Shown here piece by piece: positions 26,735-43,427 of a stretch of DNA of 64,000 nucleotides (positions are counted from its first letter, which is position 1; every line of letters begins with the position of its first letter). The position numbers and the translations under genes were made by a program. The notes beneath the pieces were generated by a model. The model was given only the letters and a program-made list of their open reading frames with translations, did no database searches and was not told the origin of the DNA. Source of the DNA: a virus (Duplodnaviria; Caudoviricetes); the IMG/VR virus record IMGVR_UViG_3300031998_000027, positions 1 to 64,000 of that record, one strand, 5' to 3'.

Positions 26735-27141
26735 AAGTTTTTTTGAAGTAGGAGAGTTACTTTCTCTCTCACTTTCTATAATAATTATAACTGAATTTTC
26801 AGAAAAAATCAAAGTTTCACAGCTTCTAAGGAAATTTGACAGCTTTTATGCGCGCAGCTTCTGTGTTTGTCAAATTTTCGTAGCTTTCGTAGCTTGCAGC
26901 TTATTAAAATTTGACACGAGTGAAAATTTGCGCGCAGAATTGGTAAAATTTGGAAATTTCTTGCTAAAAAATGGAAGTTCGCTGTCAAATTTTGACATAA
27001 AATGGGAAAATTTGGAAGTTTAGTCAACATAATACTACATTATGTAAACTTTTTAGGTCAAAATTTGACAAAAGTGAAAATTAGATGATAAACATCTAAT
27101 TTATTGAATTGACAATTTCGGGTATATATGTTATAATTGAC

Positions 27142-27231
27142 TTGTCAAGAGGGAAGGAGTGCGAGACTCCCGATAGTCCGACCCATAATAGGTTACTTCA
27201 CCGAAATAAAATTAGACTTCCCTCTTGACAA
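27142..27231 (+). ncRNA. candidate small RNA closed by a 15-bp inverted repeat
   Basis: Follows TTGACA-17-TATAAT; TTGTCAAGAGGGAAG...CTTCCCTCTTGACAA; internal GGAGT/ACTCC hairpin; no ORF. Confidence 0.45.
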
Positions 27232-27267
27232 AATAAAAAGATGTGGTATAATTAAAGGAGAAAAAAA

Positions 27268-28391
27268 ATGATTAAGAAATTTTTTGCAACAATTTTTTAC
27301 TATTGCTTTGGTCTTCGTCCTTACGCAATAATTTGTACCTCTACCAACCACCCCTCTGAACCAGTTTTTGTTTTTACTCACGAACTGCTTTCACAAAAAG
27401 AAGTTGAAAACATAAATGGATTTTATACAATCTATGATGATTTATCTATGGTTGATTTTGTGAATAAAATGGTGCAGTTTAAGACGATAGAAAGAGTTGG
27501 CTTTTGGGAGTATGTGCGAAGTCGCTAAGTTTCGCACAAAAGCCCGAGCAAAATTTTTCAAAAAACTATTGACATTTATTTGGTTGTATGTTATAATGAT
27601 TATGCTGAAAGGAGATAGAAATAATGAATTTGAAAGATTGTAGAACTAAACTTGTAGTAAAAGGAATGGCGTGGATTGTTTACGAAAAAAACAATTCTAC
27701 TCCTCGCTTGGTTGCAAAGTATCCTAATTTCAATAAGAAAACTAATGTACCTGTTGAAGTCCTTGATGCGTATCATACTAACATAGATACTACAAAAGAA
27801 TTTACTACTCCACGCGATTTTAATACTTGGGGTGTGCTAAAATGGTGGAGTAAAAATTCTCCTAATGTTTGTTATGTTTATACTAATTATGAAGAGGAGT
27901 TAAGATAATGGAAAGACAGAAGTTTATAAATGGCAAGTTTTATTTTGCTTGTAGTGACCATATGTGGGCGCGCCCTAATAATTATTATATGGGAGATGCC
28001 TTTGATACTTATGAAGAAGCACTTGCAAAAGCGATAGAAATGGCAGAAGATGGTTCGTTTGATGATTGTGGAGTTTTTTTCTATTATAACGATAAGTGGT
28101 GGGGAGAAATTAAGGTAAGGGATTATTAAAATGAATGAAGAAACAGGAGGATTGTAAAGAATGAAAATGAAAGTTCCTTGGGAAACTGGGGGTTGCCTTG
28201 TGGATAGTCTTTTGCTACTATACCTGTGGGCGGTTGAGTATCGTGAGAATTTTGATGTAGAAAAAATTGAGGAAACCATTGAGGAAGCAAGAGAATGGGC
28301 AAGAAATACTTTTGTATCTATTTGCAAAAGCATTGAGAAGCAGGAAGGGAAGGAATTTGATTTTGAAGTAGAGGACGAAGATGAAGAGTAA
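27268..28391 (+). other. four small hypothetical CDSs (27268-27528, 27624-27908, 27908-28129, 28161-28391)
   Basis: SD sites; TTGACA/TATAAT promoters at ~27225 and ~27569. Confidence 0.7.
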
Positions 28392-28559
28392 CTGCCCTTG
28401 TGATATTGACGGTTTTTGTCCATACGATGCACAATATATTAATACTTGTGAATGGTATTGCAGCGAGGAAGAACCGCAAGATGAACCTAAAATTTGGGAG
28501 GAAAATTAAATCCTCCTTAATTAGATGTATTACATCTAACAAAAAAGAGGAAAAGAGTT

Positions 28560-29093
28560 TTATCTCTTTCCCTCGGGAATTGCTATGAGAACATTGTTTA
28601 CATTCTTCATTACATAAATCTTATCCCATTTATGTTCCTTTGGATAAAAACATCTCTTGTCCTTATCTACAATAATCGGCTCTTCAAATTCCCTTTTCAT
28701 TCTACGGAGTTCCTCAATAGGAACAATTCTATTGCGCGAATGATTGTTTTCGGATTGCAAGAGTTCATCATCAATTTTTATGTAAACAAGATAATGATTT
28801 TTGAATTTTCCAAACCAATCAATAAACTGCAATCTCTTTACTGCGGTTGGCGCATTGGTATCAACAACAACAGTTTCCCCTCGCATTTCGGCTTCAAAAA
28901 TTGCCTTGTAGAAGTCTATCCAAACATTAAAGGAAATTTCTTCCTTATCATAGACATTCTTATCATTAGCATAATAAGGCGCATAAAAATCATCAATACT
29001 AAGATAAGTATATTCGTTCTGTTTTGCAAAAGCCTTTGCATAAGTAGTCTTTCCAGCACCAGAAAGACCGCACATTAGATACATATCTCCCAT
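28560..29093 (-). CDS. P-loop kinase (AAA_33/polynucleotide-kinase-like)
   Basis: MCGLSGAGKTTYA, LSIDDF, VVVDTNA....R, R.R.VP. Confidence 0.75.
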   Translation of the reverse strand: MGDMYLMCGLSGAGKTTYAKAFAKQNEYTYLSIDDFYAPYYANDKNVYDKEEISFNVWIDFYKAIFEAEMRGETVVVDTNAPTAVKRLQFIDWFGKFKNHYLVYIKIDDELLQSENNHSRNRIVPIEELRRMKREFEEPIIVDKDKRCFYPKEHKWDKIYVMKNVNNVLIAIPEGKR

Positions 29094-29111
29094 TTCTTTT
29101 CTCCTTCTTCC

Positions 29112-40890: not shown

Positions 40891-41010
40891 TGTCAAGGGG
40901 ATTTCAAATTTCTTTGAATTTTTTGAGCAACACCACAAGCCTGCGCATGGCTTCTCTTGCGGTCTCTTTTCTCCGTTTGGGACTTTACGTTTATCTTTCT
41001 CCCCTTGACA
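40891..41010 (-). ncRNA. candidate small RNA closed by an 11-bp inverted repeat
   Basis: Behind its own promoter; TGTCAAGGGGA...TCCCCTTGACA. Confidence 0.4.
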
Positions 41011-42237
41011 CTTATATAATACTACTTATTTTATCTTTTGTCAATATCTTAAATTAGATGTAATACATCTAATTATGGAAAATGGGGAAAAATTCCCCAT
41101 CTTCTCAATATTTATATTTATCAAGTCCGCTCATTTCAGCTTCTATGTCAGACAGCTCGTCAATGAAAACGACATCGTCAATGTCTTCAACGACACCATC
41201 AGACCACAGGTCTTCAAGGATTGTTAGTGCATCAGCATAATCCTCTGCGCCAATGAGGAAGCGGAAACCCTCGCTAATTTCTTCAAACAGAAAATTTCTC
41301 ATTTTTTTTGAAAATCTCCTTTTCTTTTGTTTTTGTACCTTTATTATAAATGATAAATTCTAATCTGTCAATATGTGAAATTAGATGTGTCGTTTTAGAA
41401 TTAGATGTAATACATCTAATTATTTTAGGAAAAAAGAGGACTATTTTAGTCCTCTCTCCCATCAAAAAACCATTTTACGGAAAAATCCTCGAAAACCCAT
41501 TCTATGGAAATTCCGTCCTGAAACTCCCAAGAGCTTGCATACATTATGTAGCCGAGAGCCGCCTCAGCTTCTGCCGTGAGGTTCTGCTCGCAGATGTAGA
41601 CTTCTATGACCTCACCACCATCGTCATAGATGTCGCCGAGGTAAGAAAACGGCGCGAGCATATCAAGTATTTCATCGTAAGTCATTTTTGGAAAATCTCC
41701 TTTTCTCTTAAATTCTGTAATCATTATAAACGATAAATTCCAAAAAGTCAATAGTACGAATTAGATGTGATACATCTAATTTCTAAAAAGGGAAAAAAAC
41801 CCTTTTTAGTTTTATGACTTCATTTCATGATAAATAGTTTCCAGAATTTCGAAAAGTTCTGAATCATACTTGTAAGGAATTTCTATGCGATTAATATCCT
41901 CGCAATTTTTGAAAAAGATATGAACTACATTTGTGTAACGATTGACTGATACATTTCTGATTTCTTCACAGTTAATAATCTGATTTTCAAACTTTACTAC
42001 TTTCATGATTTTATAACCTTTCCATAATTTCTATAAAATTTTTGTCAAAGGTTTTTCAGAAAATATTTCACTTTTCTGAAAATTGGTCTATTATTATTTA
42101 ACTACTTAACCTCGTTATTTTGTACTCGGTACCGTTATTCTCGGTTCTCCCCTTTGACATAGACATATTATCACATATTTTAGGAAAAGTCAACGGAATA
42201 AATTAGATGTGATACATCTAATTAAAAAAAAGGAAGA

Positions 42238-42396
42238 TTACTCTTCCTTTTTCTCCCAGTAGCGGATATATACGCCCTTGTGCGCATCTGCGTAGGCGCG
42301 AGCTTCCTTGTAGCTCGCATAGTGCGCGATGACCTTCGCGCCGCGCATAGCGTCAAAGCCCTTGCTCTCGTCGACAGTAACACCATAGATAGACAT
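42238..42396 (-). CDS. 52-aa protein, family E
   Basis: MSIYGVTVDESKGFDAMRG; tandem paralog of 42535. Confidence 0.75.
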   Translation of the reverse strand: MSIYGVTVDESKGFDAMRGAKVIAHYASYKEARAYADAHKGVYIRYWEKKEE

Positions 42397-42534
42397 AGTA
42401 ACTCCTTTCGAGGCGGCCGCCCTTTTGTCGGCTCCGTTCCTCATTGTCTGTATGATACCACATCCGGCGACAACTGTCAATAGACAGAATTAGATGTGAT
42501 ACATCTAATTCCACCACAAAAGAAGAAGGGGAGC

Positions 42535-42693
42535 TCAGCTCCCCTTCACCGCCCAGTAGCGGATATACCGCGAGCGGCTCTCGTCCGCGTAGGCGCGGGC
42601 GTCCTCGTAGCGCTCGAAGTGCGCGATGAGCTTCTCCCCGCGCATGACATCGAAGCCGCGGCTCACATCGACAGTAATCCCATAGATAGACAT
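42535..42693 (-). CDS. 52-aa protein, family E
   Basis: MSIYGITVDVSRGFDVMRG; promoter and leader also duplicated. Confidence 0.75.
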   Translation of the reverse strand: MSIYGITVDVSRGFDVMRGEKLIAHFERYEDARAYADESRSRYIRYWAVKGS

Positions 42694-42926
42694 AGTAACT
42701 CCTTTCAGAGGCGGCGACCCTTGCCGTTCGCTCCGTCCCTCATTGTCTATATGATACCACATCGGGCGCAGTCTGTCAATAGGTGGAATTAGATGTGCCA
42801 CATCTAATTCTTTAACGATTTAAATCAATGAAGTGCGAGACACATCTAATTCTTTAACGATTTAAATCATTAAAGTGTTAAAGTAAAAAGAGGGGAAGCT
42901 CAGCTTCCCCGAGGGGCGAGAGGGGC

Positions 42927-43427
42927 TTAGCCCCTCTCAAAGAACTCGTCCGCGGTCGGCAGGTCGAACAGAACGCTTTCGATGTAAGCGGCTATCGGCT
43001 TGGAAGCCTTGGGGCGGACGGTCTCGCTCACATAGAAGCTCTGAATGTGGAGGTGTCCGCGACTGTCCCACTTGGTGAACTGTCCGCGACCCGTGTAGCC
43101 GTTGAGGAACGCGACCCACTGCTCGCGCGTGAACACATAGCCCTGGCTTTCGGCGGGGAAATTGGGGTCAACGTTGGGGCAATAGATGACATACTGAGCC
43201 TTGTCGGCATTCTCAATCTCCCCGCAAGCCGACTTGACCTCGCAGGTGTAGCGCTTGCCATCCTTGGAAAAGCGGATGTCCTCAGCGCCCTGCCTCTTGA
43301 CCTTGTAGCAGCGACGGCGGGAGATATACGAGCGCATAGCAAGCTCGAAAGCATCGCCAAAACGCCCCAAATCCGTAGCCTTACGAATGGAAAGCTCCTC
43401 GCGCATAATGGTGATAGTGTCAATCAT
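42927..43427 (-). CDS. PD-(D/E)XK nuclease-fold protein
   Basis: G..G..FE helix, AEDIRF, CEVKS spacing of the restriction-endonuclease-like fold. Confidence 0.55.
   Translation of the reverse strand: MIDTITIMREELSIRKATDLGRFGDAFELAMRSYISRRRCYKVKRQGAEDIRFSKDGKRYTCEVKSACGEIENADKAQYVIYCPNVDPNFPAESQGYVFTREQWVAFLNGYTGRGQFTKWDSRGHLHIQSFYVSETVRPKASKPIAAYIESVLFDLPTADEFFERG

Follow-up and report, generated by a model that had tools for sequence, protein, structure and literature searches.

What does a perfect palindrome do when it heads nearly every gene unit of a long phage array? The question is raised by a stretch of 64,000 nucleotides (referred to as the window), which is the first 64 kb of the complete 116,286-bp IMG/VR record IMGVR_UViG_3300031998_000027. 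The tailed phage represented by this record, an uncultivated gut/rumen phage, is called G000 here. Positions 27079-43427 of the window are occupied by an array of small gene units, through which a 23-bp palindrome recurs. The original prediction, made from the letters of the window, described the array as a plug-in platform for early or anti-host genes, in which units are gained, lost and shuffled at the repeats and one protein controls about 27 promoters. We compared the array with those of five relatives fetched whole (G001-G005) and with further fetched array loci and fragments (L-numbers). It emerges as probable, with considerable room left for the alternatives weighed below, that the array is an early block of about 27 insulated cassettes under a palindromic operator for a dimeric DNA-binding protein.

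Distribution of the palindrome

A pattern search allowing up to three mismatches found 28 matches to the 23-bp palindrome, of which 20 are perfect and all lie at 27079-42809 of the window; the same search found none in 100 shuffles. The matches start at 27079, 28519, 29381, 29812, 30579, 31094, 31619, 33373, 34511, 35126, 35575, 36237, 36709, 37339, 37663, 38431, 38861, 39250, 39553, 39955, 40304, 40741, 41052, 41399, 41759, 42201, 42488 and 42787, and the spacing from palindrome to palindrome is 287-1754 bp. Scanning the whole 116,286-bp genome returned the identical 28 copies and no further ones. In addition, the 10-nt half-site is restricted to 27000-43600 in the whole genome, in which a reversed control pattern has no match. 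The earlier count of 28 copies, spaced from about 290 bp to about 1.75 kb and seen nowhere else in the window, is therefore confirmed and can be extended to the genome, where 28 of 28 copies belong to the array against none expected. The half-sites of the palindrome are 11 bp apart. Between 18 and 20 of its 23 columns reach the full 2.0 bits, exceeding the -35 and -10 hexamers of the promoters.

Anatomy of the cassettes and promoters

The palindrome heads 26 units on the minus strand and one on the plus strand. In the main array (28547-42809, minus strand), each of the 26 palindromes is followed by TTGACx, a spacer of 16 or 17 nt and TATAAT, mostly with a TG extension. Downstream of the promoter come a purine-rich leader with AAGGAG, one to three small open reading frames (ORFs) and a GC-rich hairpin with a T run, and most of these terminator hairpins end 0-8 nt ahead of the next palindrome. 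Terminator-like hairpins number 41, compared with 12.7 +/- 3.9 in shuffles, while an independent scan recovered 32 promoters matching at least 11 of 12 positions in 18 kb. Genome-wide, 29 of the 37 near-consensus promoters fall in this 14% of G000, and 24 are palindrome-coupled. According to the promoter and terminator scans, the units are autonomous cassettes running from promoter to terminator, as had been proposed, and the promoter type supports the view that they are read by the host sigma-A polymerase.

The unit layout originally described (terminator, palindrome, promoter, leader, ORF, terminator) holds for the 26 minus-strand units, and two of the 28 copies need a different reading. The palindrome at 27079 actually heads a plus-strand unit that converges on the array, and the one at 28519 is promoterless and lies at the convergent terminators.

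Of the 26 units, 18 have a gap of 7 bp between the palindrome and the -35 hexamer, three have one of 6 or 8 bp, two have one of 17 or 18 bp, and the remaining three have one of 21 or 27 bp. The gap of 17/18 bp is one helical turn beyond 7 bp, and the three units with a gap of 21 or 27 bp carry an extra half-site in between, which again ends 7 bp before the -35. In promoter coordinates the dyad spans about -65 to -43, with its centre at about -54.

Lineage of G000 and conservation of the module

The large terminase of G000 shares 43% identity with its counterpart in Geobacillus virus E3 and about 34% with SPbeta-type YonF, and the gene order around it is that of yonG-yonF-yonE in SPbeta. The best explanation is that G000 is a virulent siphophage of the SPbeta/Geobacillus-E3 terminase lineage with a low-GC Firmicute host. 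The proteins of G001-G005 show 25-60% identity to those of G000. Each of these genomes carries one array with 15-41 copies of the palindrome, which divergently abuts the same 442-aa gene; after this gene come those for the small and the large terminase. Meanwhile, exact-pattern scans of IMG/VR found arrays of the core dyad on about 30 more contigs of 108-190 kb and a TTGG variant on several others. Altogether, about 35 uncultivated relatives share the cassette design, and their arrays always adjoin the packaging/late block.

Neither the array (by megablast) nor one cassette head (by blastn) had a match among 50,697 GenBank phages, and the terminase regions of Phass-1, Geobacillus virus E3 and SPbeta contain no comparable repeated perfect palindromes. 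No palindrome arrays were found in 185,579 prokaryote genomes (596 Gb); there were 13 scattered single exact matches, which is about the number given by chance. One exception among these genomes is L065 (JAGBCL010000099.1), a 1958-bp contig of an Oscillospiraceae metagenome-assembled genome (MAG) from water-deer rectum, which has two array palindromes, one of them at the 7-bp distance from a promoter. This contig is probably a phage fragment binned in error, and it hints only weakly at the host.

The 7-bp gap between palindrome and -35 is kept in all six whole genomes. Taking all fetched loci together, there are 655 distinct sites on about 35 contigs, of which 502 have a strong promoter; the gap is exactly 7 bp at 350 and 6-8 bp at 417, and minor peaks at 15-18, 26-30 and 37-44 bp follow the helical periodicity. 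Because this phasing persists across deep divergence, the dyad appears to work with RNA polymerase rather than to be a mere repeat, and the phasing is the main argument for this.

Operator classes and the symmetry of the site

The operator occurs in three classes, ATGT, ACGT and TTGG, all of which have dyad symmetry. In the closest relatives of G000 found by the metagenome scan, represented by L191 (first array gene 75% identical to that of G000, and the KVP protein described below 86% identical), ACGT replaces ATGT in both half-sites of every site, that is, in 9, 17 and 17 sites with none of the G000 type. Hybrids of ATGT and ACGT number 6, against 1121 and 45 pure sites. The TTGG class mixes freely with TTAG and hybrids are common, which makes it unusable for studying co-variation of operator and protein. 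Since dyad symmetry is kept across the classes, and a simple homology track would not predict symmetry, the operator points to a dimeric reader.

A palindrome could also be symmetric for the sake of RNA pairing. As a hairpin in read-through transcripts, it might be a back-up terminator or a processing site, being placed 0-8 nt past each terminator, able to form a 10-bp stem with a 3-nt loop, and altered between classes by a symmetric T-to-C and A-to-G change that preserves pairing. However, the TTGG/TTAG hybrids occur in both orientations and place A-C mismatches on the transcribed strand as often as G-U pairs. The stem is AT-rich and lacks a U tract, the palindrome keeps its fixed distance to the downstream promoter and not to the upstream terminator, and the plus-strand unit at 27079 has no upstream transcript. 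A function in RNA is therefore highly improbable.

Early status of the array genes

The array genes had been called early genes, and the genetic code of four relatives supports this. The small terminase, large terminase and portal homologues of G002-G005 contain 14-21 in-frame TAG codons and no other in-frame stops. The stop-to-stop coverage of the late block in these genomes rises from 0.65-0.71 to 0.99 when TAG is read through, whereas that of the arrays hardly changes; the arrays and the DNA polymerase lack the many in-frame TAG codons of the late genes. G004 encodes a tRNA with a CUA anticodon (L049:3528-3615). G000 and G001 use the standard code throughout, so recoded and non-recoded members stand in one clade, and the relative Phass-1 is filed under the 'code 15 clade'. 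In a published model, recoding gates the late genes (bioRxiv 10.1101/2021.08.26.457843). Because the arrays stay in the standard code while the late genes are TAG-recoded, the arrays would be a pre-recoding early class, which supports an early role for the array genes. The 'anti-host' label is a guess, because almost all array products are ORFans: searches of Pfam, PHROGs and NCBIfam with 40 array proteins returned AAA_5, AAA_33, an exonuclease-like PHROG and otherwise weak noise.

Turnover and exchange of cassettes

The gain and loss of units that had been proposed can be recognized as a turnover cassette by cassette, in which only 9 of the 47 ORFs in the G000 array have homologues among the five relatives. 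Variability is greatest in the terminase-proximal part of the array, and shared families follow a different order from one array to another. Breakpoints were analyzed on the fetched array fragments of the relatives, not on G000, using 67 pairs of loci that share stretches of 80-99% identity. These contain 317 internal homology ends, of which 41% lie within 30 bp of a palindrome centre, compared with 12% for random positions; the alignments thus show breakpoints piling up at the palindrome. With the blocks oriented by transcription, 68 of their 111 starts lie between -20 and -1, which corresponds to the upstream edge of the dyad, while block ends lie at +10 to +30 or reach into the promoter and leader that follow. 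Between L008 and L019, and between L090 and L124, there are replacements with a palindrome at either end. In G000 itself, solitary half-sites or a partial duplication stand beside four palindromes (38431, 38861, 41399 and upstream of 42787), and these look like crossover scars. The data show whole cassettes being exchanged with junctions at the module, possibly by homologous recombination.

Such exchange might be all that the palindrome is for. Without any regulatory reader, it would be a homology core like that of the promoter-early stem-loop (PeSL) cassettes of T4-type phages, a cruciform or a recombinase site, kept uniform by gene conversion. The clustered breakpoints and the half-site scars agree with this, as does the slightly higher similarity of promoter regions between neighbouring cassettes (0.54 vs 0.44). 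However, no tyrosine or serine recombinase (integrase or resolvase) was found in five genomes, three of them at least 90% complete, and PF00589 had no match. Moreover, a homology track needs neither a 7-bp gap, nor helical phasing, nor dyad symmetry through operator switches, and the palindrome is better conserved than the promoter itself. We regard a palindrome without a reader as improbable.

A proposed mode of regulation

Under the operator reading, the host sigma-A RNA polymerase would transcribe each insulated cassette, and a dimeric protein would bind the 23-bp operator between about -43 and -65, keeping to one helical face with respect to the -35. This is the zone where the alpha C-terminal domains (alpha-CTD) of the polymerase and region 4 of sigma would lie. 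Repression or throttling is the most likely outcome, because the promoters are already consensus and need no activator. A regulator encoded by the array itself would build up after infection and then shut the whole early class together, giving a delayed and coordinated shut-off, either by displacing the alpha-CTD or by holding the polymerase at the promoter. Located directly behind each terminator, the bound protein may also be a roadblock that insulates neighbouring cassettes. In a secondary role, the identical palindrome-promoter modules would provide homology for gain, loss, replacement and reordering of cassettes among co-infecting relatives. That one protein controls about 27 promoters, as first suggested, is what we infer from the perfect conservation, the dyad symmetry and the fixed helical phase. 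Because the phages look virulent, the palindrome does not look like a lysogeny operator.

The sign of the regulation could be the opposite. The bound protein might activate the promoters or recruit polymerase to them, either in positive feedback or as a virion-delivered factor that lets them outcompete host promoters. The site is upstream of the -35 and in helical phase, the phasing fits direct contact with polymerase, and activators such as CcpA at ackA/pta work from a centre of about -54. Yet promoters that match 11-12 of 12 consensus positions and are mostly TG-extended should be limited by escape rather than by recruitment. In phi29, protein p4 is said, by Monsalve et al. 1997, to repress strong promoters through the same upstream contact, and a palindrome-free second promoter (P2) before one candidate regulator gene of the array, wH-B, fits a repressor better. 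An activator is thus unlikely.

Candidate readers

Three families only are present in all six arrays: a winged-helix (wH) family, the KVP family and a DnaQ-like exonuclease-like family. The wH proteins have about 110-160 aa (124 in G000); their genes lie within or next to each of the six arrays, and every genome has 2-4 paralogues. In G000, wH-B (35632-36006, minus strand; 124 aa) belongs to unit 36237 and has a helical N-terminus followed by a winged helix-turn-helix. It is preceded by a palindrome-coupled promoter P1 (36228-36201) and by the palindrome-free consensus P2 (36121-36093), which would keep the supply of repressor on past shut-off. Its 42%-identical paralogue wH-A (26312-26686, minus strand) lies just beyond the array and has its own promoter at 26812-26784. 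The AlphaFold2 (AF2) model of wH-B (pLDDT 90.5) has two N-terminal helices and a winged helix-turn-helix. The family profile matched the Hop2 winged helix in the PDB (E 6.8e-5), and Foldseek returned winged helices of MarR, PadR, TFE and Z-alpha, with top E-values of 3e-3 to 2e-2. The family has more than 1100 unnamed metagenomic relatives and a sub-threshold match to DUF6958, and is otherwise without an assigned role. Because the half-sites are 11 bp apart, a wH dimer would be suited to the operator. PadR boxes likewise use ATGT/ACAT half-sites, which we take as a lead only.

The KVP proteins, of 107-136 aa, have a Lys-rich C-terminal helix and are often encoded beside a wH gene. The G000 member (35164-35505, minus strand; 113 aa) consists of an alpha/beta domain and a long Lys-rich helix and has a paralogue at 29422-29745; in the relatives, KVP genes usually adjoin a wH gene. 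The array-encoded wH family (wH-B and wH-A), perhaps with the adjacent KVP protein, is possibly the reader and is the best candidate. KVP was also considered as the reader in its own right and set aside; its model is confident and without a fold match, and the protein atlas was uninformative. In addition, no tracking of operator class was seen in the KVP sequences. The conserved proteins outside the arrays (RuvC-like, dUTPase, NrdD, GIY-YIG and RNase H) include no regulators.

The reader could instead be a conserved host protein, such as a global regulator or a polymerase-associated factor. The early programme would then be tied to the state of the host, and the operator classes would correspond to hosts. 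The operator does not vary among phages that share only 20-35% identity in their proteins and that differ in their wH recognition helices, and its switch between G000 and L191 is unmatched by a sequence change in wH-B or KVP. A precedent is Spo0A at the early promoters of phi29 (PMC2731898). However, sites with up to two mismatches are not above the reversed control in 401 genomes of the class of the L065 MAG, which may not be the class of the host, and the 13 exact matches scattered over the prokaryote genomes are about what chance gives, although host operators are usually degenerate, which tempers such exact-match negatives. Furthermore, a universal array-encoded wH family without another assigned role is at hand. 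We consider a host reader doubtful, while granting it a real chance.

Several observations weigh against a phage-encoded repressor that doubles as a point of exchange. Between G000 (ATGT) and L191 (ACGT), helix 3 of wH-B hardly changes, and it differs markedly between G000/G001 and G002-G005 despite their shared operator. Because this recognition helix does not track the operator change, the reader may be something other than the wH protein. No phage protein is as conserved as the operator, and a host factor fits this at least as well. The position upstream of the -35 is also classical for activators. As to exchange, breakpoints at cassette borders are expected of any viable turnover, since genes must stay intact, and BLAST alignments extend into any shared palindrome or promoter.

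A more far-reaching form of the operator reading makes the palindrome dual-purpose. It would be both the operator of an array-encoded wH and Lys-rich regulator pair that switches 15-42 consensus early promoters together and a crossover point for cassettes that needs no recombinase, with the operator classes as compatibility groups. We put this forward tentatively, as clearly less probable than the operator role as such. If it is true, the ATGT, ACGT and TTGG classes would decide which phages trade and co-regulate cassettes, and the network of cassette exchange would span a whole clade of large gut and rumen phages.

Comparison with known systems

SPO1 and the PeSL cassettes had been named as comparisons, and both are apt as analogies. 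For the PeSL cassettes, modular shuffling via homologous recombination has been proposed (PMC2839356, PMC4122927). Repeated modules of a terminator and a host-type early promoter lie between small variable ORFs in both systems, and the modules of both mark the limits of indels and replacements among related phages, as tested here on the relatives. In contrast to PeSL, the array described here adds a perfectly conserved 23-bp dyad between terminator and promoter; because this dyad sits at a fixed helical phase, a dedicated DNA-binding reader is implied. It is also one contiguous array of 8-19 kb, whereas T4-type phages have several hyperplastic regions, and it belongs to an unrelated siphophage lineage with an SPbeta/E3-like terminase and a Gram-positive host, so that it is an analogue and not a member of the PeSL group.

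In the Bacillus phage SPbeta, a single master repressor, MrpR (YopR), binds a repeated motif, SPBRE (PMC10516654). The likeness lies in one repeated motif at many early-gene promoters of a large Firmicute siphophage, with a terminase about 34% identical. However, the SPbeta motif is imperfect, 15 bp long, and found at about 10 dispersed sites in the spacer or just downstream of the -10, whereas the array here has 28 sites in tandem cassettes, 7 bp upstream of the -35. The lysogeny of SPbeta is kept by a recombinase-fold protein, while an MrpR homologue, an integrase and prophage copies were not found here. The search for YopR/MrpR homologues, made with SPbeta YopR as the query and without a positive control, gave none at E <= 1 in G000, G001, G002, G004 and G005.

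Further likenesses are looser. The host-takeover module of SPO1 reportedly has about 12 promoters for 24 genes (Stewart et al. 1998), and it shares with the array dense, strong sigma-A early promoters with terminators, many small ORFans and a location at one end of the late block. It has no shared operator, and its shut-off goes through gp44/50/51 and not through a repeated DNA site. In phi29, a protein bound upstream of a strong sigma-A promoter contacts the alpha-CTD and blocks escape, as proposed here, and host-factor sites lie in early promoters; but two or three promoters are concerned rather than a 27-fold array, and the sites and proteins are unrelated. Integrons likewise have tandem, small, variable cassettes, which are bounded by imperfect or perfect palindromes and are a reservoir of adaptive genes. 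Integron cassettes are promoterless and moved by the tyrosine recombinase IntI at attC, whereas each cassette here has its own promoter and no recombinase was found in the five genomes. Integron-like and MrpR-like mechanisms were set aside, as no recombinase-fold proteins were found.

Beyond PeSL and SPBRE, our literature search found nothing on this palindrome or on a similar operator array. PeSL is the closest system in architecture and evolutionary role, and SPBRE/MrpR in regulatory logic and lineage. In the genomes of large phages, no part evolves faster or is less well understood than the early 'host-takeover' genes. The palindrome offers a sequence-only label for an early, probably anti-host, gene pool of several hundred cassettes in about 35 phages, TAG-recoded ones included. 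With one operator at a fixed helical phase to dozens of consensus promoters, it is also a clean natural case that can be tested in Bacillus subtilis with synthetic DNA, and the symmetric operator switch between close relatives is a ready experiment on how a regulator and its site co-evolve. The PeSL idea of gene exchange driven by regulatory modules would be extended to Gram-positive siphophages with a sharper junction. The promoter-operator module itself may serve as a compact, repressible strong promoter part.

Other genes and features of the array

The divergent neighbour of the array is the 442-aa gene at 43903-45231 (plus strand), which has a palindrome-free consensus promoter at 43818-43846 and is kept beside every array. 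It shows a weak match to PHROG 5767 (E 6e-6), and its C-terminal zinc-ribbon region resembles the 'sigma factor' GP4 of Geobacillus virus E3 (E 3e-5), which makes it a candidate middle/late transcription factor. It was also considered as the reader of the palindrome; with this weak similarity and no relative in the PDB, a place in the middle/late programme is more likely for it.

The first unit of the block (42927-43520, minus strand) consists of a 166-aa gene at 42927-43427 and the promoter TTGATT-17-TAATAT (43520-43492). Instead of a full palindrome it has a half-site only, inside the promoter spacer, and homologues of its gene are found at the same array end in G001 and in L191-L195. At the opposite end, the plus-strand cassette (27079-28541) has a P1 at 27109-27137, with TTGACA at 27109, and a second promoter at 27225-27252; its ORFs lie at 27268-27528, 27624-27908, 27908-28129 and 28161-28391, and it converges with the main array where the 28519 palindrome and the terminators lie. 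An AAA_33/polynucleotide-kinase-like P-loop protein is the product of the last array gene (28560-29093, minus strand).

Among the remaining minus-strand cassettes, the DnaQ-like exonuclease-like protein of 220 aa (29852-30514) matches phrog_20187 (1e-40) and, weakly, dnaQ. The two largest cassettes (31676-34408) encode an AAA_5 (MoxR-like) ATPase (33431-34408) and a 533-aa partner (31676-33277), and in both units the palindrome is 17/18 bp from the -35. One cassette (40768-41044) is ORF-free: a second promoter (40896-40868) is followed by a predicted hairpin RNA of about 100 nt at 40768-40876 with a 16-bp closing stem, and the initial 10-nt arm of the P1 transcript pairs with the -35 of that second promoter. 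Rfam gave no match for this hairpin or for the window, at gathering thresholds or at permissive E-values, and no tRNAs were found in the 64-kb window.

Four cassettes have tandem promoters about 100 nt apart, at 42007-42165, 40891-41015 and 36093-36195 on the minus strand and at 27140-27252 on the plus strand. In these cassettes, the P1 transcript begins with 10-13 nt that form the inverted complement of the -35 region of P2, which yields a long-range stem. Adjacent cassettes at 42238-42396 and 42535-42693 (minus strand) encode 52-aa paralogues behind near-identical promoters and leaders, and look like a recent tandem cassette duplication. Another pair of paralogues, both acidic, has 65 aa (41105-41302) and 68 aa (37388-37594).

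Each distal array end has its own cluster of another short palindrome or tandem repeat. Repeats of the ACGTATACGT type lie at 25975-26010 and 26140-26190 of the window in G000 and at 83289-83719 in G001 (L027), and in G003 the TTAATGAAA dyad occurs six times at 14089-14761 (L036). The arrangement suggests iterons or a second control region. A second dyad, GTCAAA-1 base-TTTGAC, is present in three copies and about three half-sites at 26247-27069 of the window. All of these surround the wH-A gene with its promoter, and the rest of the genome has none. The dyad may represent an operator set for wH-A, or an origin.

At its ends the G000 record has a 127-bp direct terminal repeat. As 127 bp is a common assembler k-mer length, the repeat probably reflects a circular assembly rather than true physical ends. 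Finally, the anaerobic ribonucleotide reductase NrdD (G000 77209-78699 and L058:11560-11991) is split in G000 into two pieces separated by about 1.2 kb, one of 496 aa and a C-terminal one of 144 aa, while it is a single 641-aa ORF in G001, which suggests that an intron or homing element interrupts the G000 gene.

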